Notes: generated by a model from the letters alone, not told the origin. A stretch of 64,000 nucleotides of DNA from an uncultured Planctomycetia bacterium (GCA_964484255.1 CAZAEH010000004.1:2282-66281), one strand, 5' to 3'. Counted from the stretch's first letter, positions 2,348-58,699 are shown. Program-made: numbers and translations.

Positions 2348-5014
2348 TCAGGCGGCCTCCAGCCAGTTCTTTCCCGCTTTTATCTGGACCTTTACAGGAA
2401 CTTTAAGCCTAACCACTTCTTCCATCCTTGTCTTTACAAGACCTTTCATTACCTCCAGCTCTTCTTCAGGGACCTCAAAAACGAGCTCATCGTGTACTTG
2501 GAGGATCATCTTGGACCTCAGTTTCTTTTCGTCGATCAAGCGTTGGATATTGATCATCGCTATCTTGATCAGGTCCGCAGCCGAACCCTGGATCGGGGCG
2601 TTGATCGCCGCCCTTTCGGCGAACTGCCTGACTGAGTTGTTCTTGCTGTTTATCTCCGGCAGGTACCTGCGCCTGTTTAATATCGTGGTGACATAACCGT
2701 CATGTCTTGCCTCTTCCACCAAGCCCTCCAAAAAAATCTTTACCTTGACGTATTTATCGAAATATGCGTCTATAAACTCCTTGGCCTTGGATATCCCGAT
2801 CCTGAGTTCTTTCGAAAGCCCGAATGGGCTCATCCCATAGACTATCCCAAAGTTGACCGTCTTGGCTATAGAACGCATCTCGTTAGTGACATCATTCTCC
2901 CCGACCCCGAATATAAGCGAAGCGGTGTGGGCATGTATGTCACGGTCATTCTCGAAAGCCTTCAGGAGCTCGTTATCCGAGGAAAAATGTGCTAGTATCC
3001 TCAGTTCTATCTGCGAATAATCCGCGGCCAGTATCGACCACCCTTTGTTGCCTGATATAAAAGCTTTGCGTATCCTCCTGCCCATCTCTGTCTTTACCGG
3101 GATATTCTGGAAATTGGGATCCGAGGAACTCAGCCGGCCGGTAGCGGTTACCGTCTGGTTAAAAGACGTGTGGACCCGGCCCGTCTTGCCGTTCACCAAT
3201 TCCGGCAATGCATCGACATAAGTAGACTTAAGTTTCTGGATCTCCCTGTATTTCAACAACAACGCCGGCAAAGGGTGAGCCGCCGACAAGGTATCCAGGA
3301 CATCAACGTCCGTTGAATGGCCCGTCTTCGTCTTCTTAACCGCAGGGAGCCCGAGTTTAACAAAGAGCACTTCGGAAAGCTGTTTAGGCGAATTGATATT
3401 GAACTCTGTCCCTGCCGTTTCGTATATTTCCGCAGTCAATCTATCAAGCTGCTTTTCCATATCAACCGACATTTTGCCCAAGTAACCGGTATCGATAGCC
3501 ACCCCGGTAAATTCCATGTCCGCCAGGCAATCAACCAGCGGCATCTCGACCTCATGGAAAAGCTTGCCCATATCCTTTTCTTCAAGCTGGGCATCCAGCA
3601 CTTTTTTAAGCCTGAAAGTCGCATCAGAATCCTGGCAGCAATAGTCTTTTACACGGCCAACATCGACTTCCTTCATAGTTATCTTCTTCTTGCCCTCGCC
3701 TATAAGCTCCGTTATGGGGGTCTTCTTCAGCCCCAGGTATTCCAGCGAGATATCCTCAAGGTTATGGTTAAATTTTGAAGGGTTGAGGATATATGAAGCC
3801 ACCATAGTATCAAAGATCTGCCCTTTTATCTTCACTCCGTTTACTTCCAGAAGCAGCTTCTCGTATTTTATGTTCTGGCCTATCTTCGTTATGCCCTTGT
3901 CTTCCAATACCTTTTTAAGCTGGCCTAAAACTTCCTGTTTAGGCAACCCTCCTTCAACATCACCTATAGGAACGTAAAAGGCAAGGCCTTCCTTCCAGCA
4001 AAAAGATACGCCCACGGGTTCACAGGACATGGGATCCGGCCCGGTCGTCTCGAAGTCCAGAGCAAACTCATTTTGCGCTGACAAATCTTTAACCAACCGT
4101 TCAAGGCCGTCATTGCCAGATACAAGCCTGTAATCACCGGATATCTTCTTGCCCGGTGAAGACAGGTCCTTAAGCAAGCTCTTGAATTCCAGTTCATTGA
4201 ACAGTTCATATAATCTTTGCCCGTCAGGCGCCCCCAGGCGGAGGGATTCAAGGTCAATCTCTATGGGCACATTGCCGTCAACCGTAGCCAATTCTTTGCT
4301 CATGATCGCCTGTTCCCTGCCGGACGATATTTTTTTACGCAGGGTCTCAGACTTTATCGAATTAACGCCGTCCAAGACCTTCTCGAGGCTGCCAAAATCC
4401 TCCATAAGTTTCCTGGCAGTCACCTCCCCGACCCCGGCTATACCGGGAATATTGTCGGAAGCGTCCCCCATAAGTGCCATGAGATCCGTTATCTTCCCGG
4501 GGGGAACTCCGTATCGTTCTCTGACCGCCTCCGCATCATATATGAGCCCTTCTTTATGAAGATTGTATACGTTGGTACGCGGCCCGACAAGCTGAAGCAT
4601 ATCCTTATCCCCGGTCACTATATAGACCTCGAAACCTTCCCCGGAAGCCCTGCCGGCGACGGTCGCCAGGATATCATCCGCCTCGTAACCCTGCATTTCA
4701 AAGATCGGTATATTATAAGCCCTTACAACTTCTTTTATTATGGGCATCTGGTCTACAAGCTCTTCCGGCATCGGTTTCCGGTGTATCTTGTATTTCTCGA
4801 ACTTCTTATGCCTGAAAGTCGGCCCTTTCAGGTCGAAAGCTATCGCCATATATCCGGGCTTTTCGTCCTTGATGATCTTGTTGATCATCGTGATAAACCC
4901 GTATATAGCGTTCGTAGGCTGGCCTTTCGAGTTCGTCAGGGCCCGTATGGCATAAAATGCCCTGTAACAGAACGAATTGCCATCTACGAGAAACAACCTT
5001 CTTTTATCGGACAT
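2348..5014 (-). CDS. polA: DNA polymerase I
   Basis: 888 aa. 5'-3' exonuclease N-terminus (LFLVDGNSFCYRAFYA), C-terminal pol A family motifs (RRxAKxxNFGxxYG, QVHDELVFE). Confidence 0.9.
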   Translation of the reverse strand: MSDKRRLFLVDGNSFCYRAFYAIRALTNSKGQPTNAIYGFITMINKIIKDEKPGYMAIAFDLKGPTFRHKKFEKYKIHRKPMPEELVDQMPIIKEVVRAYNIPIFEMQGYEADDILATVAGRASGEGFEVYIVTGDKDMLQLVGPRTNVYNLHKEGLIYDAEAVRERYGVPPGKITDLMALMGDASDNIPGIAGVGEVTARKLMEDFGSLEKVLDGVNSIKSETLRKKISSGREQAIMSKELATVDGNVPIEIDLESLRLGAPDGQRLYELFNELEFKSLLKDLSSPGKKISGDYRLVSGNDGLERLVKDLSAQNEFALDFETTGPDPMSCEPVGVSFCWKEGLAFYVPIGDVEGGLPKQEVLGQLKKVLEDKGITKIGQNIKYEKLLLEVNGVKIKGQIFDTMVASYILNPSKFNHNLEDISLEYLGLKKTPITELIGEGKKKITMKEVDVGRVKDYCCQDSDATFRLKKVLDAQLEEKDMGKLFHEVEMPLVDCLADMEFTGVAIDTGYLGKMSVDMEKQLDRLTAEIYETAGTEFNINSPKQLSEVLFVKLGLPAVKKTKTGHSTDVDVLDTLSAAHPLPALLLKYREIQKLKSTYVDALPELVNGKTGRVHTSFNQTVTATGRLSSSDPNFQNIPVKTEMGRRIRKAFISGNKGWSILAADYSQIELRILAHFSSDNELLKAFENDRDIHAHTASLIFGVGENDVTNEMRSIAKTVNFGIVYGMSPFGLSKELRIGISKAKEFIDAYFDKYVKVKIFLEGLVEEARHDGYVTTILNRRRYLPEINSKNNSVRQFAERAAINAPIQGSAADLIKIAMINIQRLIDEKKLRSKMILQVHDELVFEVPEEELEVMKGLVKTRMEEVVRLKVPVKVQIKAGKNWLEAA

Positions 5015-5109: not shown

Positions 5110-5433
5110 CTATTCCTTGAGCTTTACAGCCGTTCCATAAGCATATACATAACCGCTGTAATTGAAGTAATTGATACCTACTACGTAATCGGCTCCAAGG
5201 TCCCTCGCGGTATCCTTTAATTTTCCGTTAAGGCCGTCGAGATTCACCTCTCCTCCGCGAGCCGAGATTATTCCTATTACTTTGTATGACTCCTTCAGGT
5301 CCCCCGTGGTAAGGACGATCTCTTTCTGTTTGCCGTTGGAACCCTTGTTCTTGGGCATCACCTGGGCATCAATTGTCGAAACCAATACCAGTGCAGCCAA
5401 AACGGCTGCAACTATAAATATATTACGCTTCAT
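5110..5433 (-). CDS. YbjQ/UPF0145 (DUF74) family protein with an N-terminal Sec signal peptide
   Basis: 107 aa. Signal peptide MKRNIFIVAAVLAALVLVSTIDA. C-terminus LGADYVVGINYFNYSG..YGTAVKL resembles E. coli YbjQ LGADAVVGIDIDYE..VSGTAVK. Confidence 0.5.
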   Translation of the reverse strand: MKRNIFIVAAVLAALVLVSTIDAQVMPKNKGSNGKQKEIVLTTGDLKESYKVIGIISARGGEVNLDGLNGKLKDTARDLGADYVVGINYFNYSGYVYAYGTAVKLKE

Positions 5434-6554
5434 AGTACCGGTTCTCCTCTGGAATCAAGTACCGTAGCCGTAAGGAAGATCAAAAGGTTCTTCTTCGCAC
5501 TGGTGCTGTGATGGGTCTTAAAAAGATCCCCTACCAGCGGGAGATCTCCCAGTACGGGCACCTTCCTCTTCGTGACATCCTCAGTCTCCCTGATAAGGCC
5601 GCCGATAACAACAGTTTCTCCGCTTTTTAGGACTACCGACGTCTGCGTAGTCCTGGTATCTATTATGGGGTAACCGAGCCCGTCAGGAAACTCATCTGCG
5701 GCTGAAATCGGCACCTGGTCGACCAGGACACTTACTTCCGGATGTATATCCATGGTGATTATCTTGTTGTCGCCTGAAACGGTAGGAGTGACTTCAAGCA
5801 TGATCCCGGTAACCTTTTCGGCAACTTTATATACCTCGACCATGATAGGCCTGCCGGTAGTACCGATATTCGTCCTCGTGAAATCGGAGGCATAGGGCAC
5901 TATATTGGCAAGCTGTATGTTGGCCATCTGCCCGGAAAGCGTCGTTACCGTAGGCGACGAGAGCAGGTTTAACTTGCCCTGCTCCTCAAGGGCCTTTATA
6001 TGCATTCGTATCTGGTTACCTGCAGCCGTGAAAGTGCCGAGTTGTAAATCCAGACCGCCGGCTTCGTTTGCAAGCCCGAATACACCTGCAAGATCATCAT
6101 TGGCATCGCTTCTGTCCAGCATGGAACTAGAGAACATACTTACGCCGGTATTGCTGAAACGATTATTCTTTTCCGCGGAGCGGTTGGGTCTGTACCATTC
6201 CCATTCCACTCCAAGTTCTTCTATATCGGTAACATCTATCTCCACGAACCTGGCCTGGATCTTAACCTGGCTGGGACCGGTGTCCCAAAGCTCGATTAGG
6301 TCCCTTGCCAATACCTGGTTGGTCGGGGTGTCCGTTATAGTCAAAACACCGGTGATATCATCCATCACTATCTTCCTTTCCGGGTTCTCCGGTAGGGCCT
6401 GCTGAAGATAGTCTTGAATATTGTCGGCCTCTCCACCTGATGAGATTTCTCCTGCCCCCTCGCTTTCCGCCTGGGCAAACACGTTTGAAGAAACAAAAAA
6501 AGCAAAGGCCGTTATAACCGTTGCAAATATCAAAACCCGGACGGTCATCTTCAT
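5430..6554 (-). CDS. Short secretin (signal peptide, single N3-type domain, C-terminal secretin domain; no N0 domain)
   Basis: 374 aa. N3-like segment QVKIQARFVEIDV. Secretin C-domain VPVLGDLPLVGDLF ... NLLIFLTATVL. Paralog of the next gene. Confidence 0.8.
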   Translation of the reverse strand: MKMTVRVLIFATVITAFAFFVSSNVFAQAESEGAGEISSGGEADNIQDYLQQALPENPERKIVMDDITGVLTITDTPTNQVLARDLIELWDTGPSQVKIQARFVEIDVTDIEELGVEWEWYRPNRSAEKNNRFSNTGVSMFSSSMLDRSDANDDLAGVFGLANEAGGLDLQLGTFTAAGNQIRMHIKALEEQGKLNLLSSPTVTTLSGQMANIQLANIVPYASDFTRTNIGTTGRPIMVEVYKVAEKVTGIMLEVTPTVSGDNKIITMDIHPEVSVLVDQVPISAADEFPDGLGYPIIDTRTTQTSVVLKSGETVVIGGLIRETEDVTKRKVPVLGDLPLVGDLFKTHHSTSAKKNLLIFLTATVLDSRGEPVL

Positions 6555-7642
6555 CTTACCGCCTCCCCTCTGGCATTGATGATGCTCGCCGTGATGAAAA
6601 TAAGGAGGTTCTTCTTGCGCTGGTTCTTGTAATCATATTGGAACGCCTTGCCCAGGACAGGAATATCTCCAAGTACGGGTACCTTCATCTTCGTTATAGT
6701 CTCTTCATCCTTTATCATGCCGCCTAACACTATCGTCTGTCCGCTGTCAACAACAACACTCGTCTGGGCGGTCCTTACATCCACAACCGGCCAGCCTAAC
6801 GAATCAGGGATCAACGGCACGGCATCTGTCGCGGTGACGTTTCCGAGCTGCCCGGTCTCACCGCTCGTGGTCAACGTGGATATGCTTACCTGGTCCTTAA
6901 GGATACTTACCTCGGGATGCAGGTCCAGGGTTATGGTATTGGAGCCTTCGGTCACATAGGGAGTAGCTTCAAGGAATATCCCTATGGGTTTCTCAGCCAA
7001 TGTAAGTTTATAACTCCATATAGGATCTTCGGCCGTACCTATGTTCTCAAGGGTGAAATCCGACACATAGGGCTGCGTCCTTACAACCTGGATATTGGCC
7101 ATCTGTCCTGCGATCGTGGTGATCTTAGGTGAAGACAAAAGGTTGGCTTTGCCCTGTTCGGCCAACGCTCTAAGATTGGCAACAAAATAATCGCCGCCTT
7201 CCAGGATCTTAAAGAGCATCAACTGGCTGGCATAACTTCCGGAAAGCGGGAAAGCTCCCGCAGCGCTGTCCCAGACAACCTGTCCCGGCCCGACCCTGCT
7301 GCCCCTGAGACCCTTATTGCTGGTATGGCCTTCATGCATCTCATAATATTCTACGCCAAGTTCCCAGAGATCGGTAACATCGACTTCGACGAACCTTGTC
7401 TCTATCATGACCTGTTTAGGCCCGACCTCGTACTGCTTAATAAGGTCCTTTATGAGGGATTGGTTCGTCTTCGTGTCTGTCACCGTAAGGAGCTTCGTGG
7501 CCTGGTTGTATGTTATTTTCCTGCCGTCCTGCGGGGGCAGGCTGTTCTGGAGATATTCGGCAATGGTAAGATCTTCCGAAGACGCGATACAGGGGAGCCC
7601 CAAAAGGGAAACGACTGCTAGAATAAGGAGATTTTTTCTCAT
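6551..7642 (-). CDS. Short secretin paralog (signal peptide, N3-type domain, secretin domain; no N0)
   Basis: 363 aa. QVMIETRFVEVDV; VPVLGDIPVLGKAF...NLLIFITASII. Overlaps the downstream paralog by 4 nt. Confidence 0.8.
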   Translation of the reverse strand: MRKNLLILAVVSLLGLPCIASSEDLTIAEYLQNSLPPQDGRKITYNQATKLLTVTDTKTNQSLIKDLIKQYEVGPKQVMIETRFVEVDVTDLWELGVEYYEMHEGHTSNKGLRGSRVGPGQVVWDSAAGAFPLSGSYASQLMLFKILEGGDYFVANLRALAEQGKANLLSSPKITTIAGQMANIQVVRTQPYVSDFTLENIGTAEDPIWSYKLTLAEKPIGIFLEATPYVTEGSNTITLDLHPEVSILKDQVSISTLTTSGETGQLGNVTATDAVPLIPDSLGWPVVDVRTAQTSVVVDSGQTIVLGGMIKDEETITKMKVPVLGDIPVLGKAFQYDYKNQRKKNLLIFITASIINARGEAVR

Positions 7643-7644
7643 GT

Positions 7645-8760
7645 CTATTCCTGTTTGGTCTCGAATTCTTTCAGTTTAACTTCCCTGGTCTTACGTTCCG
7701 GATATTTAAGTTTGTAGGTCCTGGTAACCAAGTCTTCTTTCTGTATTACGGATTTGCTTGATACATAGACGTAATTCGGTTCTACTTTATATGCCAACTG
7801 CGTTGTCTTGAAAGCTATATCCAATACATCAAGAAGTGGCATAGGAGTAGCCGTGCTCAAGGAAATCTTTATAGGGCTGTCTTTTGTGAGGTTGGCAAGC
7901 TCCCTCTCGTCGACAACAATCGTAACACCCGTCATCTCCATCAGCTGGCGGATAAGGTCTTGGATATCCGCATCGGTTACCGAGATCGCCGGGACCATTA
8001 CGCTGCGCATCTTGTCGACCAGGGCTTTTTTCGCTTCCTGCTCGGCCCTTTCGGCCTCAGATATAACTTCTTCTATCTGTACCTCTTCCTTAGCCGGAGG
8101 CGTAGGAGGCAACCAACTCCTGTCTACGTCCCGCAGCGAAGCCTGCTCTGCGGTTTCCTTTTCCTCGCTTATAACCTGTCTGTCTTTAATTATATCCTTG
8201 CGCTCCTCAAGCGTGGACTTTTCCCTGAGATAATAGTTTTCGGCTTTTTGGGCTTTCTCAAGCCATAGACGCGCCTCTGAATCATTTGGGTTGGCCGCGA
8301 GAGCAGTCTCAAAATCGCTTACCGCCGCGGAATACTGCTTATTGGCATAATTGGCCTTACCCCTCTTTACCATGGAACCCGTTACCGTTCCCGGAACATC
8401 CTTAACTATCCCTTCCTTGCATAACTCGACGTAATGGACCGCAGACTTGTTCTTGGGGTCCATCTGGACGATCTTCTCGAACAGTTGTTGGGCAGTTTCG
8501 TAATTTTTGGCTTCGTATTCTTTTTTAGCTTGGCTGAAGAGGTCTGAAATAACGGTTTTCCGTTCGATCTTCTTTTGCTTTGCGAGGTCCTGGGCTACTA
8601 TCTTGGCTTCAATGGACTCATCGGAGTACGCTGAAGTGCTTGCTGCGCGGGCTTCACTTCCCGAGAAATAAAACAATGAGATAATAAAGAACAAATTAAA
8701 AGTCAGGCAAATACAAAAAAACGGCAGTACCGTTCTTTTAACCCCATTGGTAATATCCAT
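7645..8760 (-). CDS. Membrane-anchored TPR-repeat protein with a C-terminal secretin-N0-like domain
   Basis: 371 aa. N-terminal TM segment, TPR-like repeats (AKNYETAQQLFEKIVQMDPKN; KQYSAAVSDFETALAANPND). C-terminus ISVTDADIQDLIRQLMEMTGVTIVVDE...ISLSTATPMPLLDVLDIAFKTTQLAYKVEPNYVYV aligns to the N0 domain of the full-length secretin at 51116..52876 (ITLDFKDADIQNVLRVLAFKSGINIVAGKEV...VDVPWEQALAVILNTYGFAYERDGNIITV). Confidence 0.55.
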   Translation of the reverse strand: MDITNGVKRTVLPFFCICLTFNLFFIISLFYFSGSEARAASTSAYSDESIEAKIVAQDLAKQKKIERKTVISDLFSQAKKEYEAKNYETAQQLFEKIVQMDPKNKSAVHYVELCKEGIVKDVPGTVTGSMVKRGKANYANKQYSAAVSDFETALAANPNDSEARLWLEKAQKAENYYLREKSTLEERKDIIKDRQVISEEKETAEQASLRDVDRSWLPPTPPAKEEVQIEEVISEAERAEQEAKKALVDKMRSVMVPAISVTDADIQDLIRQLMEMTGVTIVVDERELANLTKDSPIKISLSTATPMPLLDVLDIAFKTTQLAYKVEPNYVYVSSKSVIQKEDLVTRTYKLKYPERKTREVKLKEFETKQE

Positions 8761-8765
8761 TTATA

Positions 8766-9443
8766 TCATCTCCCCTTGTTAATAACCCACTCTTGATTTT
8801 GGCCGTATAATACCACACTACCCGGCTTTATGTCAAGAACTTTATAACCGTTGTATTCCTCGCCCTTCTTGACTTCGAAGGTCTTGTCGTTCATTGAGTC
8901 GTATAATTTAGCTATAAGCTCTTTACTTTTAACGGGTTTCTTGTATTCAAGGATAAGCTGGCCGTCCCTATTTTCGGCCTTTATCAGTTTGGAGTTTATC
9001 TCCAAAATTTTGTAATCCTTAAACTTTTCCCCCTTCTTAGCAAAATATGTCTTGCCCGACCAGTTGATTTGCCCTATCATGGTCCCATCCTGCTTCTGGA
9101 TGAAGCCGTTATACATAAAAGGCAGATTATTCGCCCCTATAGAAACCACCTTAAGCTTTTCAGGGCTGAACTGTTCGGGGGGCGCTTCCGGTTTGATAAA
9201 GATGTTCCTGTCGAACAAAGGTTTATATCTCGATATTGCGAACGGTGAATTGATGCCATCGATAAGCGCGGCATAATTGTCGGTTGTATCCGTGACTTCC
9301 AGGCCCTGGGCTTTCTGCATCCCGGCCTTCTCCTCCATTAAAACACCGGATTCTTCAGGCGCAAAAAGGGACGAGCCCCTCCAGATAAAGATAAGCCATA
9401 TCGCAAACAGGATTATAGTTGCTATTTTATACGCATCCTTCAT
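8766..9443 (-). CDS. PilP/GspC-like periplasmic protein with N-terminal TM anchor and two tandem HR-type beta domains
   Basis: 225 aa. Internal repeat YFAKKGEKFKDYKILEINSKLIKA / FEVKKGEEYNGYKVLDIKPGSVVL resembles the PilP core of locus B (LKVGDILGDYKVTKITEDEVTL). Confidence 0.45.
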   Translation of the reverse strand: MKDAYKIATIILFAIWLIFIWRGSSLFAPEESGVLMEEKAGMQKAQGLEVTDTTDNYAALIDGINSPFAISRYKPLFDRNIFIKPEAPPEQFSPEKLKVVSIGANNLPFMYNGFIQKQDGTMIGQINWSGKTYFAKKGEKFKDYKILEINSKLIKAENRDGQLILEYKKPVKSKELIAKLYDSMNDKTFEVKKGEEYNGYKVLDIKPGSVVLYGQNQEWVINKGR

Positions 9444-19460: not shown

Positions 19461-20210
19461 CTACTGTACGCGTATGAAATCCGTGAAAGTCCTCTTCTGG
19501 CTCCCGTCGCGGCTTTGTATAGTTATTGAAACCGCTACCGCATTGGGCAAACCATCCGGGACCTTCGCGTTATTCCCGTAGTCATAATTCTGGTTGGGAC
19601 TCCCGTCAAGGAGATCCAGGCCGGAATTCCATTCGCTTACCGTCGTTGTCGAAGACCCCCCGACGGAAGACTTATAATAATATGTGAACTGCAAGTCCGT
19701 AACATTGTGCGCTATGATATCATCGGAAAAAGTCCCTGAACTGTTGTTGGAAAAATCGTATACCACCGGGACCGTACTGCCATTGAAATATTCGAAATGC
19801 CTAATTAGGCAGTTATCGTCACGAAGCCAGTAACCTATTTCACACAGGTCCTGCATGCCGGGGTTATCTTCAACCGGGGCCACAAGGAACAATTCATCGG
19901 CGATAGAACCGGACTTTATTATATAGGTGCTGCCTTTGTCGTTACCCTGGAACTTTGTCCAATATCCAGTGTTATCCGATTTCTGGTAAAGCACGGCAGA
20001 GGGTATCTCTTTGCGCATAAGTTCCAGCGCGAACCTGCCGTTCTGGTATATATCCAGCAAGGTCTCGGATTTACGCCATGAGTCGAGGGCCCCCCTGAAG
20101 ACCGTAAATAGCGATAGAACAACTATAGAAAAAATGACGGAAACTACCAGTATTTCAACAAGGGTGAGCCCTGCCCTGCCGGCTCTTGAATGCCTACCTG
20201 TCCGCGACAT
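19461..20210 (-). CDS. GspJ-like minor pseudopilin
   Basis: 249 aa. Prepilin N-terminus AGLTLVEILVVSVIFSIV. Confidence 0.6.
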   Translation of the reverse strand: MSRTGRHSRAGRAGLTLVEILVVSVIFSIVVLSLFTVFRGALDSWRKSETLLDIYQNGRFALELMRKEIPSAVLYQKSDNTGYWTKFQGNDKGSTYIIKSGSIADELFLVAPVEDNPGMQDLCEIGYWLRDDNCLIRHFEYFNGSTVPVVYDFSNNSSGTFSDDIIAHNVTDLQFTYYYKSSVGGSSTTTVSEWNSGLDLLDGSPNQNYDYGNNAKVPDGLPNAVAVSITIQSRDGSQKRTFTDFIRVQ

Positions 20211-20547
20211 TTATGGTAAAACCTCTCTGAAAACCCTTATTGCCTTGCCCCCAGCCGACAGTGCAGATCACCTGCCTTAAATTATCCACGGAGGTGGTCG
20301 AGACCGTCTGGGTCCAGGTATATGCGGGGTCTGTGAATGTGCCTGAGGTGGTGCCGAGACTGGGAAAACCGCTGTTCCTTATCTGTTCAAAATGCTCGTG
20401 GGCGAATATCGTGGCCTGGGTAGCACTTACCGACCTTCGGGCGGAATCGAAACCTATCGGGAAAAGGGACAATATCCCCACAAGCCCTATCGCGAGGATA
20501 GAAAGAGAGATGATTATTTCGATGAGGGTAAATCCGCTCCTATTCAT
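20194..20547 (-). CDS. GspI-like minor pseudopilin
   Basis: 117 aa. MNRSGFTLIEIIISLSILAIGL. Confidence 0.6.
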   Translation of the reverse strand: MNRSGFTLIEIIISLSILAIGLVGILSLFPIGFDSARRSVSATQATIFAHEHFEQIRNSGFPSLGTTSGTFTDPAYTWTQTVSTTSVDNLRQVICTVGWGQGNKGFQRGFTINVADR

Positions 20548-20574
20548 GCTGCGCCCTCGCTTTTACCGGCCCGG

Positions 20575-21075
20575 CTATCTGGTCCAGTTCGTTACGTTGT
20601 CCGTGCCTCCGACCACCCTGTCCGGACCATACGAAATAATATCGACATAATAGCCGCCGTGTCCCGAAGTATCAGGATTAGTGTAAGTTAACGCCGTCCC
20701 CCACGCATCTATTATCGTATTACCTCCGGTAAGGTCACCGTCCTTGAACGTCATGTACGGCCCCGACCAGTTGGTGGTGGGAAGGGAATAAGAAGTTACG
20801 GTACCTATAGTATAGGTACCCGTATTGCTGACCAGGCAGTTGTAAAGGTTAGTGTTGCCGCTCGAGGGATAACCGCCGAGGTCAGCCTGGAACATCCCAA
20901 TGCCGGTCTCTATCGCGGCTATCATCGCTTTGGTGCGGGCTATCATCGCCTTCTGCCTTGCGGTCTGGGCGGCAGCCGCCACCAATCCCGCTAACAGCAA
21001 TATTATAGTCATGACGACCACGAGTTCTATTATGGTGAAACCTTTCTTCCTGTTCGCCCTAACCATATTAACCAC
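20575..21075 (-). CDS. gspG: GspG-like major pseudopilin
   Basis: 166 aa. KGFTIIELVVVMTIILLLAGL, then a GspG-like body (PYMTFKDG...DAWG). Confidence 0.7.
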   Translation of the reverse strand: MVNMVRANRKKGFTIIELVVVMTIILLLAGLVAAAAQTARQKAMIARTKAMIAAIETGIGMFQADLGGYPSSGNTNLYNCLVSNTGTYTIGTVTSYSLPTTNWSGPYMTFKDGDLTGGNTIIDAWGTALTYTNPDTSGHGGYYVDIISYGPDRVVGGTDNVTNWTR

Positions 21076-22333
21076 CTCCTAAAGCGGTTACGAGCTGGAA
21101 GAGCGGCATGAACATGGCTATTACTATGAAACCGACTATCATACCCAGCCCGATGATCAAGAACGGCTCGAGCAACGACATCAAGCCCGTTACCGTGACA
21201 TCTACTTCTTCATCATATACATCGGCAACCTTCAGCAGCATCTGGTCCAAGGCACCCGTCTCCTCCCCTACGGAGATCATGTTAACGGCCATCGCAGGGA
21301 AGAGCCCTGCCTTAAGCAAGGGCTTGGCTATCGTCTCTCCTTCCCTTACCGCATCATGAACCACCACTATAGAACGGGCCATCGCCTCATTGCCGGTAGT
21401 GTCCTTTGAGACCATAAGGGACTGCAGTATAGGAACACCGCTTGATAACAGTGTCCCGAGCGTCCTCGAGAAACGGGCAATGGCTATCTTCCTCAACAAC
21501 TGACCCATTACCGGTATCTCCAACTTACCCTTGTCGATCAGGAGCTTTGTCACGGGCAAACGATATAGGACATTCCATAGGACGATGAGCAATACTATCG
21601 AGCCTATACCGATATACCATTTGCTCCTTGCAAAATCGCTGACCACGAGCAGGACTTTGGTCATTACCGGCAGCTCCACGTCCATTTCTTTGAATATCTG
21701 CAAAAATTTGGGGACGATAAACGTTATAAGAAAACCCAGGACCGATAGAGCCATGGTAAGAACGAGGGCGGGATAGACCATGGCCGATTTTATCCTTCCC
21801 TCCAACCTTTGGGATTTTTCGGCAAACTCCGCAAGACGGGTAAGCACCACTTCGAGCACACCGCCGGCCTCGCCCGCTTTTACCGTATTTACATACAGAG
21901 GGGGGAACGCCTTGGGAAACTTCGAAAGCGCTTCGGAAAAGGAGCTGCCGCCTTCGACCTGCTCTGCAAGCCCGCGGATAGTAGTCTTCAATACCCCCGA
22001 CTTCTCCTGCCTTTCGAGGACATATAAGGCGCGGACAAGGGGCAGACCGGAACCTATAAGGGTAGCCAGCTGCCTGGTAAACACGGTTATCTGCTTGGCG
22101 CTGACACCTCCGAACGACAAACTTAAAACTGACTTCGCCGGCTTGGGGCCGCCGGGTATCTCCCTGCTCCTCAAGGGAGAACCGTTACCTTTATCCTTCT
22201 CTTCGTTGATACTTATGGGATAAAGGCCTTTCTGGCGCATCTGTTCCATGGCATCCTGGTTTCCGGAAGCCTCGAGCCTGCCCTTGCTCTCCTTGCCGTC
22301 CTTGTCTATAGCGACGTAATTGAAGATGGCCAT
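21068..22333 (-). CDS. gspF: Type II secretion / type IV pilus inner-membrane platform protein
   Basis: 421 aa. Two GspF repeats and three TM segments. Confidence 0.85.
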   Translation of the reverse strand: MAIFNYVAIDKDGKESKGRLEASGNQDAMEQMRQKGLYPISINEEKDKGNGSPLRSREIPGGPKPAKSVLSLSFGGVSAKQITVFTRQLATLIGSGLPLVRALYVLERQEKSGVLKTTIRGLAEQVEGGSSFSEALSKFPKAFPPLYVNTVKAGEAGGVLEVVLTRLAEFAEKSQRLEGRIKSAMVYPALVLTMALSVLGFLITFIVPKFLQIFKEMDVELPVMTKVLLVVSDFARSKWYIGIGSIVLLIVLWNVLYRLPVTKLLIDKGKLEIPVMGQLLRKIAIARFSRTLGTLLSSGVPILQSLMVSKDTTGNEAMARSIVVVHDAVREGETIAKPLLKAGLFPAMAVNMISVGEETGALDQMLLKVADVYDEEVDVTVTGLMSLLEPFLIIGLGMIVGFIVIAMFMPLFQLVTALGGG

Positions 22334-22403
22334 TAATTTTATCTCCCCCTTCTATATTATAAATATACCTTATACAAAGGTCTTTGTCAAAGGCTCAAAA
22401 AAA

Positions 22404-24137
22404 CTACATTACGGAAGATTGAGCCTCCTTTAGCACCTCTTCTGCGGTCGTGACCCCTGCGTTTACCTTTTCCAAGCCGTCGTCCAGGAGCGTCTTCATG
22501 CCGTTCTCAATAGCAGCTTTCCTTATAAGGGCTGTATGCGCCTTTTCTATTACGAGCTGCCTTATCTTTTCATTTAATACAAGGAGTTCATATATACCCG
22601 TCCTGCCTTTATAGCCCGAATTGTTGCATTTCACGCAACCCACGCCCCTGTAAAATTTCCTGTTCTTTGCTTCTTCGGGAGCCAGCCCCAGGTCGGATAT
22701 CAGTTCGGGTTCCGGAGTATACTCTTCCTTGCAGTTCTGGCATATCTTGCGCACGAGCCTCTGGGCAAGCACCGCTTCAAGCGTGGAAGTAACAAGGAAT
22801 GGCTCGATGCCCATATCGATCAACCTCGTGATCGTGCCTGCCGCGTCGTTGGTATGCAGCGTCGAGAAGACCAAATGTCCGGTAAGGGACGCCTGTATCG
22901 CTATCTGTGCGGTCTCGGCATCCCTTATCTCACCTACCATTATTATATCGGGGTCCTGCCTTAATATATGGCGAAGGGACGTGGCGAATGTAAGGCCTAT
23001 CTTGGCATTTATCGGGACCTGTATTACACCCTTAAGGTCGTACTCGACAGGATCCTCGGTAGTGATCACCTTATACTCTATCTTGTTTATCTCCCTCATA
23101 CATCCGTACAATGTAGTGGTCTTGCCGCAACCGGTCGGCCCGGTAGTAAGGAATATGCCGTTTGGCTTGATTATTATATTCCTTATCCTCTTCTTGGTTT
23201 CATCCAGCATTCCGACCTCATCTATAGAAAGGCTGACCGTCGTCCTGTCGAGGACCCTCATGACGATGCTCTCGCCGAATATCGTAGGCAAAGTAGAGAT
23301 ACGCAGGTCCACGCTCTTGCCTTCTATTGTGACCATGATACGTCCGTCCTGCGGAAGGCGGCGTTCGGCTATATCAAGGTTCGCCATGACCTTTATCCTG
23401 GATGACAGGCCAAGGCTCAAGTTCTTAGGAGGCCTGGCCACCTCATAAAGGACGCCGTCCACCCTGTACCTTATCCTGTAATCTTGTTCGAAAGGCTCGA
23501 AATGTATGTCTGATGCCTTCTCCCTGACCCCCTGGAGAAGTATCATATTAAGAAGCTTGATGACAGGGGCGCGTGAAGCAAGCTCCTGGAGTGTAGCTAT
23601 GTCATTTATCTCTTCCCCCTCAGGAACAAGCTCCATCTTCTCGCCAAAGACGCCGAGGACATCCTGTATCGTTTCGCCCTCGGAACCGTAATACCTTTGT
23701 ATCTGCTCTTTTATCTCCTCATCACTGGCAACCACACCCTTTATGTTCATTCCGAGGGTGAACCTCAGGTCGTCAAAAGCGGCTACATTTAGCGGGTCCG
23801 CTATGGCTATTGAAAGCTGGTTGCTTTCAACAGAAACAGGAAGTATGGTATATATCTTCGCAACGGAAGCCGGGACCTTGTCAATTACCTCCTTCGGGAT
23901 CTTCATGTCCTTGAGCCTGACCACAGAGAACCCGGACCGCGCCCCAAGCAGCTGCAGGATATCGTCTTCCTTGACAATGCCCATATCGACGAATATCCTT
24001 CCAAGAAGTTTGCCGGTAAGCTTTTGCTCTTCCAGCGCCTGCTCGAGCTGGCGTTCGTTTATCATCCCCTTCTCAAGGAGAAGCTGGCCTATCCGCTTGT
24101 ATTTTTCCTGTTTAGGTTGTTCTTTTTCGGCAGCCAT
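22404..24137 (-). CDS. gspE: GspE/PilB-family secretion ATPase with MshEN-type N-terminal domain
   Basis: Walker A GPTGCGKTT, Asp box, tetracysteine CQNC...CVKCNNSGY. N-terminal RIGQLLLEKGMINERQLEQALEEQ-KLTGK-LLGRIFVDMGIVKEDDILQLL matches the tandem 24-residue MshEN motif with a 5-residue spacer. Start set at Met7 (GGAG RBS upstream); the track ORF extends to 24155. Confidence 0.9.
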   Translation of the reverse strand: MAAEKEQPKQEKYKRIGQLLLEKGMINERQLEQALEEQKLTGKLLGRIFVDMGIVKEDDILQLLGARSGFSVVRLKDMKIPKEVIDKVPASVAKIYTILPVSVESNQLSIAIADPLNVAAFDDLRFTLGMNIKGVVASDEEIKEQIQRYYGSEGETIQDVLGVFGEKMELVPEGEEINDIATLQELASRAPVIKLLNMILLQGVREKASDIHFEPFEQDYRIRYRVDGVLYEVARPPKNLSLGLSSRIKVMANLDIAERRLPQDGRIMVTIEGKSVDLRISTLPTIFGESIVMRVLDRTTVSLSIDEVGMLDETKKRIRNIIIKPNGIFLTTGPTGCGKTTTLYGCMREINKIEYKVITTEDPVEYDLKGVIQVPINAKIGLTFATSLRHILRQDPDIIMVGEIRDAETAQIAIQASLTGHLVFSTLHTNDAAGTITRLIDMGIEPFLVTSTLEAVLAQRLVRKICQNCKEEYTPEPELISDLGLAPEEAKNRKFYRGVGCVKCNNSGYKGRTGIYELLVLNEKIRQLVIEKAHTALIRKAAIENGMKTLLDDGLEKVNAGVTTAEEVLKEAQSSVM

Positions 24138-24144
24138 GCTTACG

Positions 24145-25857
24145 CTACTCCTCATAGCCGTGCGTGATGCGCACGACCTCAGAAATTGTCGTTATGCCTT
24201 CCCTTACCTTATTAAGGCCGTCTTCCCTCAGGAGCTTCATGCCGTTGCGGCGCGCGGCTTCCCTTATCTCTTGCGAAGAAAGTCTCTTCACTATCATTTC
24301 GCGTATTTCGTCATTGTTGACCAGAAGCTCAAATATTCCGATCCTTCCCTTATACCCGGTATAATTACACATCTTGCATCCCTTGCCCCTGAACAGCTGC
24401 ATTCCTTCAACGGCTTTTGGATCGGCTGATTTTTGCCCGAGGACATATAACTCTTCATATGAAGGTTTATACGGCTCCTTGCAGTTCTGGCATATCTTGC
24501 GCACAAGCCTCTGGGCCATTACCGCCTGGACCGTAGAACTGACGAGATATGACTTGACACCCATATCTATTAGTCGGGTAAATGCGCCGGCGGCATCGTT
24601 GGTATGCAGAGTACTGAACAGCAGATGTCCCGTAAGGGCGGCTTGTATGGCTATAGATGCGGTCTCAAAATCGCGGATCTCGCCGACCATTATTACATCG
24701 GGCGCCTGCCTGAGCATAGTCCTCAAGCCCGAGGCAAAGGTAAGGCCTATCGAAGGCCGTACATGGACCTGGTTTATACCCGATATCTGGTACTCGACCG
24801 GGTCCTCTACCGTTATGAGTTTTTTGTTGGGTTTATTTATATAGCTAAGGGCCGCGTAAAGAGTCGTCGTCTTTCCGCTTCCGGTAGGGCCCGTAATAAG
24901 CAACATGCCGTACGGCAGGTGTATAAGCTTCTCGAAAGTCTCGGCATCCTCATGGAGGAATCCGAGTTCAGCGAGGCCAAGCATAAAACTGGATTTGTCG
25001 AGGATCCTCATGACCACGCTCTCACCATATATAGCCGGAAGTGTAGAGACGCGCAGGTCAAGGTCCTTGCCCATGCCTTGTATCCTGATCCTGCCGTCCT
25101 GCGGAAGGCGCTTCTCGGCTATATTCATGCCCGCCATGATCTTAAGGCGGCTCAATATGGAAGGTTGCAGCTGTTTTGGGGGGCCGGGAACTTCATGCAA
25201 GACGCCGTCTATCCTGTACCTTACGCGGAACTTGTCTTCAAGCGGCTCAACATGTATGTCGGAAGCGCGGTTCTTTACGGCTTCGGATATTATCTGGGTA
25301 ACAAGCTTTATTATGGGTGCCTCGTCTTTTTCCTCTTCTTTCACGACTTCAGCCGCGACACCTTTAAAAGACACCGTCGCGTTATCATTCTGTTTCTGCG
25401 CAACGGCATCCAGTATGTTCTTGCTTCCTCCATAATGTTTCTCAAGCGCTATATTTATGTTCGACTCGGAGCTAAGCACAAAATCAAGCTTCGAACCTGT
25501 AAACGTTTCAAGGTTATCCTGTGCCAGAAGGTTAATGGGGTCATCCGTCGCAACGGTCAGGATATCATTCTCGAATTTTATGGGAACTAACTTGTGGCGG
25601 TATGCTAATGCCGGTTTTACCTTGGAAAGGATATCGAAGGGGATCTCCATATCAAATATAGGGGTGCGCACAAGGGAGAATTCCTGGATTATAAGGTCCC
25701 TGAGCTGTTCGGTCTGGAGGAACCCTATACCGTTGAGGATATCGGAAAGGCGGTTTCCGGAATCAAGCTGCGATTTTAGGACACTCCTTAATTGGGATTC
25801 GTCAAGTATCCCTATCGACTTGAGGTATTCGCCTATAAGCCTGCTTCTATTGATCAA
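24145..25857 (-). CDS. Second tandem GspE/PilB-family ATPase (TTG start as called by the track)
   Basis: 570 aa. GPTGSGKTT, CQNCKEPY...CKMCNYTGY. N-terminal LIGEYLKSIGILDESQLRSVLKSQ-LDSGN-RLSDILNGIGFLQTEQLRDLI is MshEN-like. Confidence 0.9.
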   Translation of the reverse strand: MINRSRLIGEYLKSIGILDESQLRSVLKSQLDSGNRLSDILNGIGFLQTEQLRDLIIQEFSLVRTPIFDMEIPFDILSKVKPALAYRHKLVPIKFENDILTVATDDPINLLAQDNLETFTGSKLDFVLSSESNINIALEKHYGGSKNILDAVAQKQNDNATVSFKGVAAEVVKEEEKDEAPIIKLVTQIISEAVKNRASDIHVEPLEDKFRVRYRIDGVLHEVPGPPKQLQPSILSRLKIMAGMNIAEKRLPQDGRIRIQGMGKDLDLRVSTLPAIYGESVVMRILDKSSFMLGLAELGFLHEDAETFEKLIHLPYGMLLITGPTGSGKTTTLYAALSYINKPNKKLITVEDPVEYQISGINQVHVRPSIGLTFASGLRTMLRQAPDVIMVGEIRDFETASIAIQAALTGHLLFSTLHTNDAAGAFTRLIDMGVKSYLVSSTVQAVMAQRLVRKICQNCKEPYKPSYEELYVLGQKSADPKAVEGMQLFRGKGCKMCNYTGYKGRIGIFELLVNNDEIREMIVKRLSSQEIREAARRNGMKLLREDGLNKVREGITTISEVVRITHGYEE

Positions 25858-26029: not shown

Positions 26030-26425
26030 CTATTTCCTGGTAATAATAAAAACCGTCAAAAGCACTATCAGGATAAAGACAAGAATATAGAAATCGTTCA
26101 GGTAAACGAAATCCCTGACTTTATCAAAAAGCGAATACCTTTGCCTGCTTTGGGGTTCACTCGGAGGGGATAGATGATAGATGGGGACAGACTGGTGTTT
26201 TAGCACCTTTAGGCGGCTCTTAAGGGCCTCGACCTGTCCCTTCCTGAGCCTTATGAACTCCCCTCCTATCCTGTAGGCCGGGATCTTGCCTTCGGCCACG
26301 AAAGACCTGACATCCCCCTCGTCCAACTCGAGTATGCTTGCAGCTTCCTCGATAGTTATAAGCCTTTCGCGGTCGCTTTTCCCGTCCGGGACTCTATTTA
26401 ATTCTCTCCGAGCTGATCCATTCAT
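26030..26425 (-). CDS. Excisionase-family HTH (HTH_17) protein with C-terminal transmembrane anchor
   Basis: 131 aa. LITIEEAASILELDEGDVRSFVAEGKIPAYRIGGEFIRLRKGQVEAL; C-terminal hydrophobic segment FYILVFILIVLLTVFII. Confidence 0.5.
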   Translation of the reverse strand: MNGSARRELNRVPDGKSDRERLITIEEAASILELDEGDVRSFVAEGKIPAYRIGGEFIRLRKGQVEALKSRLKVLKHQSVPIYHLSPPSEPQSRQRYSLFDKVRDFVYLNDFYILVFILIVLLTVFIITRK

Positions 26426-58303: not shown

Positions 58304-58686
58304 CAAAGAACCGAATAATAATAGCCGGAGCCTTGTTGATACTGGGCATACTCATCGCCATGCCTTTATTGAAACCGGCGAATGGACCTATCGTCCCCGA
58401 AAATAAACAGGCGGTCCAGGAAACTGTGCCGCAGGCAGGCGTCTTTGAATTACCGCCTGACAGTGCAAGGGACACCAGAGAACCGGTCATGACTGAGACC
58501 GCGACAACCGTAACGGTAAGTGAAATGCCAAGCAAAAAAACCCCCAGAAAGGCAAGACATATTGAGGAAGATCCACAGGACAAGGGTTACGATTCAATAG
58601 ACCCGGGCCTCGTGCCTAACCCGCCTAAATCACCTTCACCCGAGATACTAAGGAACATGCAAAAGAAGGGTATAGTCCTTTACTGA
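58300..58686 (+). CDS. Small N-terminally anchored, Pro-rich membrane protein of unknown function
   Basis: 128 aa. TM IIIAGALLILGILIAM then a low-complexity P/E/T-rich tail. It is the last gene of the minor-pilin operon. Confidence 0.35.
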   Translation: MTKNRIIIAGALLILGILIAMPLLKPANGPIVPENKQAVQETVPQAGVFELPPDSARDTREPVMTETATTVTVSEMPSKKTPRKARHIEEDPQDKGYDSIDPGLVPNPPKSPSPEILRNMQKKGIVLY

Positions 58687-58699
58687 AAAGCGCCCGCGT

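Follow-up and report, generated by a model that had tools for sequence, protein, structure and literature searches.

A probable variant of the PVC-wide type IV pilus-like machine in Candidatus Omnitrophota, with giant GspK-like tip pilins and a predicted three-gene secretin

Results

The sequences nearest to the window (the whole stretch of 64,000 nucleotides analysed here) are Omnitrophota MAGs, which match it at 98-100% (98% to MAG UBA6215), and by this match it is DNA of Candidatus Omnitrophota. It carries a tightly packed cluster of 17 genes, all on the minus strand, running over about 20 kb from 25857 to 5110 (Table 1). Independent JGI gene calls on an identical contig gave the same products, and the order of the genes is kept across Omnitrophota at 25% to 98% identity. 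All 16 genes of the original prediction were found at their positions and on this strand, with the predicted identities almost exactly right and labels backed by domain and fold evidence; a 17th, Sm, had been missed. Its start overlaps the SecB stop by 4 nt, and 18 Omnitrophota loci have it in the same place. The probable start of K2, as set by comparison with L013, is 15603, and that of LP is 13081.

Table 1. Genes of the cluster, their predicted products and the matches behind them.
Gene	Position	Strand	Length (aa)	Predicted product	Basis
E1	24145..25857	-	570	PilB/GspE-type extension ATPase	T2SSE 478 bits + MshEN
E2	22404..24155	-	583	PilB/GspE-type extension ATPase with c-di-GMP-binding MshEN motif	T2SSE 473 bits + MshEN
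F	21068..22333	-	421	PilC/GspF platform protein	T2SSF 201 bits
G	20575..21075	-	166	GspG-like major pilin	Pfam T2SSG 40.9 bits (cutoff 21) + N_methyl
I	20194..20547	-	117	GspI/PilV-like minor pilin	N_methyl; weak PilV, GspI, Verru_Chthon B matches
J	19461..20210	-	249	GspJ/PilW-like minor pilin	N_methyl; weak Verru_Chthon C match
K1	16590..19451	-	953	Giant GspK-like tip pilin, PA14 lectin domain and further lectin-like beta-sandwiches	
BH	15694..16593	-	299	Secreted right-handed beta-helix protein, K1 partner	Beta_helix 29.3 bits; signal peptide
K2	13090..15603	-	837	Second giant GspK-like tip pilin, without PA14	NCBIfam GspK 48 bits, Pfam T2SSK 23.9 bits
LP	11888..13081	-	397	Lipoprotein, fold unassigned, K2 partner	LVLSC lipobox
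MN	10207..11844	-	545	PilM-TM-PilN fusion, Amuc_1101 family relative	PilM_2 122 bits (residues 7-343), PilN 36.8 bits (450-528), TM 369-390
O	9440..10204	-	254	Bitopic PilO/GspM-like protein, Amuc_1100 family	Family profile vs PDB; N-terminal TM 9-36
P	8766..9443	-	225	TM-anchored connector, two HR (PilP/GspC-type) domains	
TPR-N0	7645..8760	-	371	Detached N-terminal secretin module (TPR repeats, N0, first strand of next ring domain)	TPR domains; weak STN, N0 matches
SecA	6551..7642	-	363	Short secretin (partial N3-like + secretin domain), own signal peptide	Secretin 131 bits
SecB	5430..6554	-	374	Second short secretin, 47% identity to SecA	Secretin 147 bits
Sm	5110..5433	-	107	Small secreted YbjQ-like protein, cluster end	Signal peptide; motif GADYVIG...YGTAVK

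Sigma-70-like sites are at chance level overall, with two promoter matches at 11/12; since these sit one in each of the two largest intergenic gaps, the cluster may form up to three transcription units instead of a single operon. Neither PilT nor an A24 prepilin peptidase was found within the window, in keeping with the original prediction, but for PilT the absence is local only, as a true PilT is encoded in the same genome 0.9 kb past the window's right end. GGDEF genes are present both three genes beyond the downstream end of the cluster and upstream of PilT. A separate T4aP locus at 51-64 kb (locus 2) is present as predicted; its second ATPase (62684-63901) runs off the end of the window, the full protein being a 569-aa PilB.

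The two adjacent extension ATPases, which in the original prediction may form a hetero-hexamer, are intact as had been proposed, with Walker A and B, the Asp box, the His box and the zinc-binding CxxC...CxxC motif in both. NCBIfam scores are 634 (E1) and 656 (E2) for GspE (cutoff 630) and 637 and 644 for PilB (cutoff 676), and the top PDB match is Geobacter PilB for E1 (508 bits) and PilB for E2 (558 bits). The MshE-type c-di-GMP motif scores 63.7 bits in E2, where the exact motif RIGQLLLEKGMINERQLEQALEEQ is present, and is degenerate in E1 (27 bits, exact motif absent; cutoff 38 for both). Each has its own orthologue clade (bootstrap 98% for E1, 100% for E2); E2 adjoins the PilC gene F in every case, and E1 is absent from at least one related locus (L044). 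In other Omnitrophota, orthologous operons show the order PilB-PilT-PilB'-PilC, in which a true PilT separates the two ATPases; those of L018, L021, L042 and L044 have PilT inside them. The platform family HMM scored 445 with locus-2 PilC and 360 with A. baumannii PilC, against 311 with Etp GspF and 300 with XcpS.

The predicted G/I/J/K pilin set without GspH was borne out. The prepilin motif G↓F/LTxxE is carried by G (as KKG↓FTIIE), I and J, and K1 and K2 are GspK-like, without E5. The G family HMM gave 99.7 with XcpT and 82 with Etp GspG, against about 40 with locus-2 pilins; that of I gave 54 with a locus-2 minor pilin and 39 with XcpV, and that of J 47 with a locus-2 pilin and 42 and 34 with GspJ. 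By such scores the major pilin is the only part of the cluster with GspG-like character. For K1 the structural model has matches to GspK, to the PA14 domains of adhesins and to ConA-like folds, from which we infer that K1 may bind sugars. K2 has in common with K1 the N-terminal module (32% identity) as well as one middle and one C-terminal segment, the PA14 insert being confined to K1. BH follows K1 in seven loci (L001, L003, L006, L009, L010, L012, L019), and LP follows K2 in every case, the K2-LP pair being doubled in L003 and L006. The N-terminus of LP gave weak matches to Lepto_7_Nterm and PTPDL only; a PDB search returned no relative, and there is no similarity to Amuc_1102-like proteins.

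MN has the domain order of GspL, as had been claimed. Its family HMM matched PilM (186) and PilN (35), and that of O matched locus-2 PilO (37.9); among the Xcp and Etp proteins they gave no match at all to GspL or GspM, respectively. Against the PDB, the O family profile found Amuc_1100 (6lad, 6kny; E 4e-15) ahead of PilO (E 0.05). Fused PilM-PilN proteins were seen in Omnitrophota, Auribacterota, Planctomycetota and Verrucomicrobiota, and judged by its family (NCBIfam Amuc_1101) the fusion is a PVC-wide trait, not one peculiar to the source organism. The HR fold is present twice in P, and its comparison to GspC holds in that the TM anchor is as in GspC.

TPR-N0 aligns over its whole length with the 727-aa secretin of L026 (residues 35-368), and its N0 motif aligns with XcpQ 54-84 and locus-2 PilQ 70-144. 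The Secretin_N match begins only at profile position 14 in SecA and 10 in SecB; in alignment and in-silico re-joining, the C-terminal strand of TPR-N0, LVTRTYKLKY, completes this domain of both. By these alignments TPR-N0, SecA and SecB are pieces of one ancestral single-chain secretin, a point absent from the original prediction. One might suspect that faulty assembly or a frameshift had broken up what is really a single long gene, given one-piece long secretins in relatives and a gap of only 2 nt, with a change of frame, between TPR-N0 and SecA. Such an artefact is scarcely credible and is refuted by the conservation of the three genes, which recur at the same sizes in 18 independent MAG or metagenome loci at 25-98% identity. 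SecA and SecB form sister clades, each with orthologues from all of these loci (SecA being represented in every split-type locus), each has a signal peptide of its own, and stand-alone TPR-N0 proteins of 357-430 aa make up about a dozen 50%-identity clusters.

Discussion

Proteins of the window match the Amuc_1101, Amuc_1100 and Amuc_1098 families as well as Verru_Chthon A, B and C. The kinship to Akkermansia is distant, because the Amuc family scores fall far under the NCBIfam cutoffs (278 bits against 650 for MN with Amuc_1101_fam, and 30 against 180 and 141 against 750). The Verrucomicrobiota-type locus L063 is collinear with the cluster, carrying PilC, Verru_Chthon-like pilins, a giant K, an Amuc_1102-like protein, Amuc_1101 (351 bits), an Amuc_1100-like protein, Amuc_1098 (310 bits) and PolA. 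Gene order and family matches make the cluster the collinear counterpart of a PVC-wide system composed of the “Verru_Chthon cassette” pilins and the Akkermansia Amuc_1098-1102 (MUL2) module. Akkermansia MUL2 has been described as a type IV-like pilus attaching to fucose-rich glycans, and mucin uptake needs MUL genes (PMC13174399; PMC12418764). In Akkermansia muciniphila, Amuc_1098-1102 has the same order of PilM-PilN fusion (Amuc_1101), PilO-like Amuc_1100 and TPR-bearing secretin (Amuc_1098), with polA, coaE and rho downstream as in Omnitrophota. The Omnitrophota cluster differs in its split and duplicated secretin, in its extra double-HR protein, lipoprotein and YbjQ-like protein, and in containing the ATPases, PilC and pilins itself, whereas the Akkermansia PilC (Amuc_1584) is encoded elsewhere; no Amuc_1102 homologue was found in the cluster. 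The Verru_Chthon cassette A-D (TIGR02600, TIGR02598, TIGR02599, TIGR02596) is a prepilin-like set whose giant member A has a GspK/PilX-like N-terminus, and in Verrucomicrobiota-type loci the set precedes the PilM-PilN fusion. The likeness is confined to the N-terminal 60-80 residues, and the Omnitrophota giants have PA14 and ConA-like domains and come as two paralogous modules.

The original prediction saw in the cluster T2SS-like logic built from T4P-like parts. The parts, the GspL-like topology and the GspC-like anchor stand; a distinct T2SS-like system does not, as judged by family HMMs, PDB matches and the ATPase tree. A type II secretion-like machine, in which a short GspG-type pseudopilus with an I-J-K cap pushes folded exoproteins through the secretin, with MN acting as GspL, O as GspM and P as GspC, is nevertheless an alternative to be taken seriously, if an unlikely one. 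The cluster has the E-F-G-I-J-K order of T2SS (Xcp, Etp, Gsp), a major subunit far nearer GspG than the source genome's other pilins, a GspK-fold cap, and two ATPases above the GspE and below the PilB cutoff. Both here and in relatives, genes for secreted enzymes are found within the cluster or next to it, and candidate substrates would be BH and, in relatives, Peptidase_MA or lipase-like neighbours. A GspC/L/M-type operon was seen in no fetched locus, and Gsp operons of the canonical kind are not known to be common among PVC bacteria. What counts against a pilus is that the major pilin is GspG-like and that PilT is missing from the window's operon, which fits a short, non-retractile pseudopilus.

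Set against this, nearly all parts are nearer T4aP than Xcp/Etp proteins, G alone being GspG-like: with family HMMs built from operon orthologues, PilC, PilM, PilN, PilO and PilQ outscore Xcp/Etp GspF and GspD, and GspL/GspM sequence relation is lacking. The GspE cutoff is exceeded by 4 and 26 bits only, and PGAP gives the name GspE also to a full-length ATPase of PilB architecture on a Comamonas plasmid. In a neighbour-joining tree E1 and E2 fall outside the XcpR+EtpE clade (100% support), with bootstraps below 30 at deep nodes. PilT lies inside orthologous operons, GspH, an S-domain pilotin pair, the secretin N1-N2 domains and a PDZ domain in the HR protein are absent, the ATPases, unlike those of T2SS, are two in number, and lectin-bearing tip pilins some 950 aa long fit an exposed filament, not a periplasmic piston. 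TXSScan-based work likewise classes Omnitrophota systems as T4aP and proposes a role in cell-cell attachment for these pili (PMC10066038). Like the T4aP of Myxococcus, Geobacter and Pseudomonas (PilBTC-PilMNOPQ), the cluster has MshEN-bearing PilB-type ATPases, PilC, PilM, PilN, PilO, an HR protein and a PilQ-like secretin; the pilB-pilT-pilC core recurs in orthologous Omnitrophota operons, and minor pilins prime the T4aP tip, as would be the case here. Unlike them, it has PilM fused to PilN, a TM-anchored and doubled HR protein, a GspG-like major pilin, a giant K pilin and no PilY1, a split secretin without AMIN domains, and, in the window's copy, no PilT. DNA uptake, which in Thermus and Neisseria is carried out by T4P-like machines with PilQ-type secretins, is suggested by the position of polA, which in about 30 loci belonging to several PVC phyla comes next after the secretin or Sm. 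A competence pilus is, in our view, very improbable: ComEA, ComEC and DprA are missing from the cluster and the annotated flanks (window flanks, L089, L091), the tip proteins have lectin folds rather than DNA-binding folds, and polA followed by glgA, coaE and rho looks like a retained ancestral gene order (PMC13174399, Fig. 2B legend).

We favour, with reasonable if not strong confidence, the view that the cluster is the Omnitrophota version of a PVC-wide type IV pilus-like machine, of the lineage of MUL2 and the Verru_Chthon pilins, and most likely a c-di-GMP-controlled, glycan- or host-binding pilus. It is composed of two PilB-type ATPases, PilC, a GspG-like major pilin, an I-J-K set, the fusion with O and P, and a three-gene secretin. 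In such a pilus E2, and perhaps E1, would polymerise G subunits under c-di-GMP control, beginning below the I-J-K cap. From its place at the apex, K would present the PA14 and lectin-like domains on the filament tip, where they could bind glycans carried by a surface, a particle or a host cell; K1 plus BH and K2 plus LP would be alternative tip modules. The N0 domain of TPR-N0 may be bound by the HR domains of P, and TPR-N0 in turn may stay joined to the ring of SecA and SecB through its last beta-strand, donated to complete the first ring domain of both. Retraction may use the PilT encoded beside the second pilus locus.

A pilin-fold module bearing a large adhesive tip domain, with alternative tip modules as proposed here, recalls pili with exchangeable tips. 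Exchangeable adhesive tips are known from the modular pilins of Streptococcus sanguinis and the minor-pilin/PilY1 sets of Myxococcus, and the Kil Tad pili reportedly have adaptable tips. In Omnitrophota, as read from genes and models, a cap subunit of GspK/PilX type would instead be the carrier, with PA14 and ConA-like domains for adhesion. Four features look new: the tandem pair of conserved PilB paralogues, the GspK-like tip pilins of about 950 aa (one with PA14 and lectin-like folds), the membrane-anchored connector with two HR domains, and the secretin, which a break within its first ring domain divides into TPR-N0 and two short paralogues. Since Akkermansia and other PVC bacteria are already recognised as having the same type of machine, the cluster is best seen as an uncommon form of a known system and not as a new secretion system.

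Results

Pfam, NCBIfam and the ORF listing confirmed, almost item by item, the gene set of the original prediction, which had described a T2SS-like operon of about 20 kb built from type IV pilus-like parts, and the same set is present in the JGI gene calls for a contig encoding identical proteins. The genes follow one another without interruption (Table), most junctions being overlaps or gaps of less than 30 nt; the largest gaps separate E2 from F (70 nt), BH from K2 (about 90 nt, with the K2 start corrected) and LP from MN (43 nt). As had been claimed, the pseudopilin set comprises G, I, J and K with H absent, and both ATPases are intact, each retaining Walker A and B, the Asp and His boxes and the tetracysteine motif. 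The seventeenth gene, Sm, overlaps the stop of the last secretin and is kept at the same place in 18 related loci. The lipoprotein LP has no useful relative in Pfam, NCBIfam or the PDB and is not Amuc_1102-like. Horizontal transfer of the cluster was rejected, as its GC content (0.46-0.52) lies inside the range of the remaining window.

Promoter and terminator scans gave overall counts at chance level. Two 11/12 matches to the sigma-70 consensus fall in the E2-F and LP-MN gaps and, by position only, may be internal promoters; their placement agrees with the separate MN-to-Sm module found in L002, a locus of a 61%-identical relative. In that locus the pilins ahead of the module are replaced by other genes, and a K1 homologue lies elsewhere on the same contig. 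The two small genes directly upstream of E1 are possible candidates for regulators or positioning factors of the pilus cluster.

Features of the pilus cluster, its flanks and related loci (window coordinates; L numbers denote related fetched loci)
Feature	Coordinates (strand)	Description
Cluster, 17 genes	25857-5110 (minus)	contiguous
E1, E2		two T2SSE ATPases, each with MshEN N-terminus (Pfam/NCBIfam)
F		T2SSF protein (Pfam/NCBIfam)
G, I, J		T2SSG-type pilin and two further prepilin-motif proteins (Pfam/NCBIfam)
K1, BH, K2		two proteins of about 850-950 aa with GspK match at N-termini, beta-helix protein between (Pfam/NCBIfam)
LP		lipoprotein
MN		PilM_2-PilN fusion, single TM helix 369-390
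O, P		two proteins without any family match (Pfam/NCBIfam)
TPR-N0		TPR protein, weak N0 and STN signals
SecA, SecB		secretins, 363 and 374 aa
Sm	5110-5433 (minus)	signal peptide and YbjQ-like motif
Genes upstream of E1	26030-26425 and 26394-26933 (minus)	one with HTH_17 domain and C-terminal TM helix, the other a bactofilin-HTH_17 fusion
Sigma-70 match, E2-F gap	22362-22390 (minus)	11/12
Sigma-70 match, LP-MN gap	11859-11887 (minus)	11/12
polA	2348-5014	
glgA	949-2346	
coaE	347-1042	
GGDEF gene	1-371	partial
DUF4900 protein, locus 2	57032-58303 (+)	423 aa
PilB, locus 2	62684-63901	569 aa, cut by window end to a "405-aa ATPase"
L091 overlap	58001-64000	100% identical; JGI contig extending the window's last 6 kb
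PilT	about 64866-65933 (L091:3736-4803)	just outside window; 458 bits to PDB 5zfq
MshEN-only protein	on L091 (L091:4813-5259 and L091:2285-3721 also listed beside PilT)	outside window; 148 aa
HAMP-GAF-GGDEF protein	on L091	outside window; directly upstream of PilT
Peptidase_MA_2 genes	L018:16878-20345; L021:17143-18799; L024:17148-17939	one or two genes between Sm and polA
L002 locus	L002:654-9484	1782-aa beta-helix/PA14/LamG protein and 718-aa lipase-like protein before MN-to-Sm module
O-P fusions	L025:7189-8421; L031:5081-6349	411-423 aa chain

Relatives of MN at 60-98% identity were found only in Candidatus Omnitrophota MAGs; in a GTDB scan the match to UBA6215 was at 98% identity, and JGI and NCBI contigs carry sequences 100% identical to one of the proteins. 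At 25-35% identity the MN family extends to further classes of Omnitrophota and to Auribacterota, Planctomycetota (Uabimicrobium and Kuenenia among them) and Verrucomicrobiota, with Akkermansiaceae included. Mapping of 82 loci with phmmer gave one order throughout Omnitrophota, E1-(PilT)-E2-F-G..I-J-K-(BH)-(K2-LP)-MN-O-P-TPR-SecA-SecB-Sm-PolA. In about 30 loci, from Omnitrophota, Verrucomicrobiota-type and further PVC MAGs, the gene directly after the secretin or Sm is polA, and beyond it lie glgA, coaE, a gene for a 172-aa GGDEF protein and rho (window and the related locus L089), an order whose conservation is unusually deep. In other Omnitrophota, Peptidase_MA_2 genes intervene between Sm and polA, and L018 additionally carries a Dpy19-like membrane glycosyltransferase; neither kind is present in the window, and their products could be cargo or processing enzymes. 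Genes of about 270 aa after Sm in relatives had been suspected of encoding PilD and were rejected as Peptidase_MA_2. Two further loci carry O and P as a single chain, alongside one undivided secretin of about 710 aa, which is another fusion/fission state of the same machine.

By NCBIfam the assignment of E1 and E2 is ambiguous at the level of model scores: the GspE model TIGR02533 gives 634 and 656, respectively, against a cutoff of 630, and the PilB model TIGR02538 gives 637 and 644 against 676. The best solved relatives of both are full-length PilB. Since PGAP gives the name GspE to a full-length ATPase of PilB architecture on the Comamonas odontotermitis plasmid NZ_CP083452.1 (aligned to E2 22-582), that model name is not specific for T2SS. 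The phylogeny of the four GspE/PilB paralogues was a neighbour-joining tree with PilT as outgroup and few references, taken from plasmid records (XcpR, Etp GspE, A. baumannii PilB, Legionella MshE, a Deinococcus PilF-like and a cyanobacterial PilB-like protein). The E2 clade (100%), the E1 clade (98%) and XcpR with EtpE (100%) were robust, and neither E1 nor E2 grouped with the latter; E1 joined E2 at 65% and both joined the locus-2 ATPases at 50%, but with all deeper nodes below 30% bootstrap the tree does not assign the system.

No PilT or A24 peptidase homologue is encoded within the window, and tblastn with A. baumannii PilD and the Etp A24 peptidase found no prepilin peptidase in the window or the 82 related loci. 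The predicted lack of a retraction ATPase thus holds for this operon and window, but not for its orthologues or for the genome. PilT and its setting weigh most in the choice between T2SS and T4P. In four related loci (L018, L021, L042 and L044) a gene of about 355 aa scoring 346 bits to Geobacter PilT stands before E2, and between E1 and E2 where E1 is present, so that the ancestral core is pilB-pilT-pilB'-pilC, a typical T4aP motor block. The L091 extension places a true PilT beside locus 2, the separate T4aP locus, just beyond the window, and the genome therefore does have a retraction ATPase. There PilT lies ahead of the MshEN-only protein and two full-length PilB genes, the second of which shows that locus 2 also has tandem PilB genes. 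The MshE-type c-di-GMP motif is exact in E2 and degenerate in E1, and genes for GGDEF proteins lie three genes downstream of the cluster and immediately before PilT.

The secretin is both split and duplicated. TPR-N0, with its N0 motif in region 254-337, can be aligned over its full length with residues 35-368 of a 727-aa Auribacterota secretin, and mature SecB aligns with 368-709 of the same protein. Fission took place in a variable loop that follows strand 1 of the first Secretin_N domain: TPR-N0 ends in LVTRTYKLKY, SecA and SecB start at the following helix, and for this reason Pfam Secretin_N matches SecA only from position 14 and SecB from 10. When the pieces were re-joined in silico, full-length 1-69 Secretin_N matches of 29.7 and 35.3 bits were obtained, compared with 22.2 and 25.3 for the proteins alone (cutoff 28.2). 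SecA and SecB share 47% identity and their clades are sisters, with orthologues of each in all split-type loci; among 1.8 billion representatives, TPR-N0 proteins that stand alone account for only about a dozen clusters at 50% identity. Together, these alignments, clades and rarity indicate that the split is real, old and clade-restricted; a frameshift artefact was considered and rejected. Long secretins in tandem pairs (about 670-800 aa each) are carried by Auribacterota and other lineages (L026, L027, L030, L033, L034, L040, L042 and L044), where each pair is lineage-specific in the tree and separate from SecA/SecB, which points to repeated duplication or gene conversion.

PA14 is present in all 23 close K1 homologues (P0167-P0189), and the K1 model (pLDDT 76.7, pTM 0.75) matches three kinds of fold. 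K2 shares with K1 the GspK module and C-terminal parts but lacks PA14. K1 is paired with BH and K2 with LP; some genomes have one pair only, and two have K2-LP twice.

Discussion

Whether the cluster is a secretion system or a pilus was weighed with family HMMs built from its orthologues and scored against fetched reference operons (P. aeruginosa Xcp, E. coli Etp, A. baumannii pilBCD and the Legionella MSH locus) and against locus 2. The F family scored higher on PilC (445 and 360) than on GspF (311 and 300), and the secretin families higher on PilQ (166-197) than on GspD (105-160); I and J slightly preferred the locus-2 minor pilins to those of T2SS. The original prediction had likened MN to GspL in topology and O to GspM; in the HMM scores, MN matched PilM (186) and PilN (35) and O matched PilO (38), with no match to XcpY, XcpZ, Etp GspL or Etp GspM and no T2SSL or T2SSM Pfam match. 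The sole exception to the T4aP preference among the scored components is, judged by profile score, G, with XcpT at 100 and Etp GspG at 82 against about 40 for local pilins. This GspG-like subunit is the main reason for keeping a T2SS-like role, which we consider unlikely, in view; G passes Pfam T2SSG (40.9, cutoff 21) and falls below TIGR01710 (61 against 88.85). A T2SS GspD is an N0-N1-N2-N3 secretin, whereas here N0 sits on a separate protein and the secretins score 162 and 176 on the GspD model TIGR02517 (cutoff 351). A T2SS also has no associated retraction ATPase, whereas PilT is present in the orthologous operons and in the genome. For Omnitrophota, a published TXSScan analysis reports T4aP and Tad systems and no T2SS (PMC10066038).

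All four domains of the T4aP alignment complex (PilM, PilN, PilO and PilP) are here, but PilM forms one chain with PilN, and P, the counterpart of PilP, is TM-anchored and carries two HR domains. On the PilQ model TIGR02515, SecA and SecB score 127 and 169 against a cutoff of 284, which the locus-2 secretin passes at 285.2. E2 carries the MshE motif of an MSH-type pilus, but the MshL scores are 143 and 151 against a cutoff of 250, and gene order and content are unlike the Legionella MSH locus. We favor, with some reserve, a T4aP-derived, PVC-type pilus with lectin caps, which c-di-GMP probably controls and which may be retracted in trans; what the original prediction observed stood, and its interpretation is partly supported. 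At locus 2, a DUF4900 protein weakly matches the K2 family HMM (21.6 bits) and probably caps the second pilus as its PilX/GspK-class subunit.

The closest named kin of the cluster are PVC families. The best or only specific NCBIfam matches of the window proteins are to the families Amuc_1101, Amuc_1100 and Amuc_1098 and to proteins A, B and C of the Verru_Chthon cassette, all below cutoff. For MN the best-scoring model is NF045709 (Amuc_1101; 278 bits, cutoff 650), with the same architecture and a family continuous across PVC loci. O scores 30.5 on NF038287 (Amuc_1100; cutoff 180), and its orthologue profile matches solved Amuc_1100 (E 4e-15) and then PilO (E about 0.05), which makes O a PilO/GspM-class bitopic protein of the Amuc_1100 family; a profile of P found no match in the PDB, and its relatives came from fold comparison only. 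NF042912 (Amuc_1098) is covered, below cutoff, by three proteins, TPR-N0 at profile positions 159-370 and SecA/SecB at 662-804. No window protein matched Amuc_1102 (NF042424), and LP, at the Amuc_1102 position upstream of MN, is unrelated to the Amuc_1102-like ORF of L063. This Verrucomicrobiota-type locus is collinear gene for gene and scores far higher on the same Amuc and Verru_Chthon models, so that the cluster belongs, if distantly, to a system found across PVC bacteria. [quoted passage not shown] The likeness to MUL2 extends downstream, where the same neighbours recur (polA, then glgA, coaE, a GGDEF gene and rho), coaE and rho being drawn beside Akkermansiaceae MUL2 loci as well (PMC13174399). 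The role in glycan attachment or uptake is known for Akkermansiaceae only (PMC13174399; PMC12418764); the lectin folds modelled in K1 are the one feature here that would suggest it for the Omnitrophota cluster.

How the parts might fit together can be imagined, if tentatively. In solved complexes GspK caps the I-J-K tip, and K1 with BH and K2 with LP may thus be alternative adhesive caps. We infer strand donation in trans and a mixed SecA/SecB ring. A three-component hetero-oligomeric secretin, in which SecA and SecB would form one ring, TPR-N0 would be held by its donated first beta-strand and P would bridge to the PilM-PilN platform, with interchangeable lectin caps (K1 and BH or K2 and LP) catching glycans or host cells for ultra-small Omnitrophota, is a doubtful proposal; we know of no secretin that is hetero-oligomeric or complemented in trans.

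For annotation, GspE and GspG model matches alone should not count as evidence of T2SS in PVC genomes. The parts most worth pursuing are the secretin, being both split and duplicated, and the fusions of GspK with lectin domains. The former offers secretin biology a natural experiment, a gene fission inside a ring-building domain together with duplication of the pore-forming part, and tandem secretin duplications recur independently in neighbouring phyla. The Verru_Chthon cassette families join Omnitrophota pili and MUL2 in one PVC-wide type IV filament lineage, tying the pili of uncultured, possibly host-dependent bacteria to the medically studied, mechanistically obscure MUL2/Amuc_1100 machinery of Akkermansia, and Amuc_1100 is then seen as a PilO/GspM-like assembly subunit, not a pilus fibre protein. 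Finally, GspK-type caps with PA14 and ConA-like domains would be a compact route for placing adhesins at the pilus tip, and such tip adhesins fit the epibiotic or predatory lifestyle proposed for Omnitrophota.
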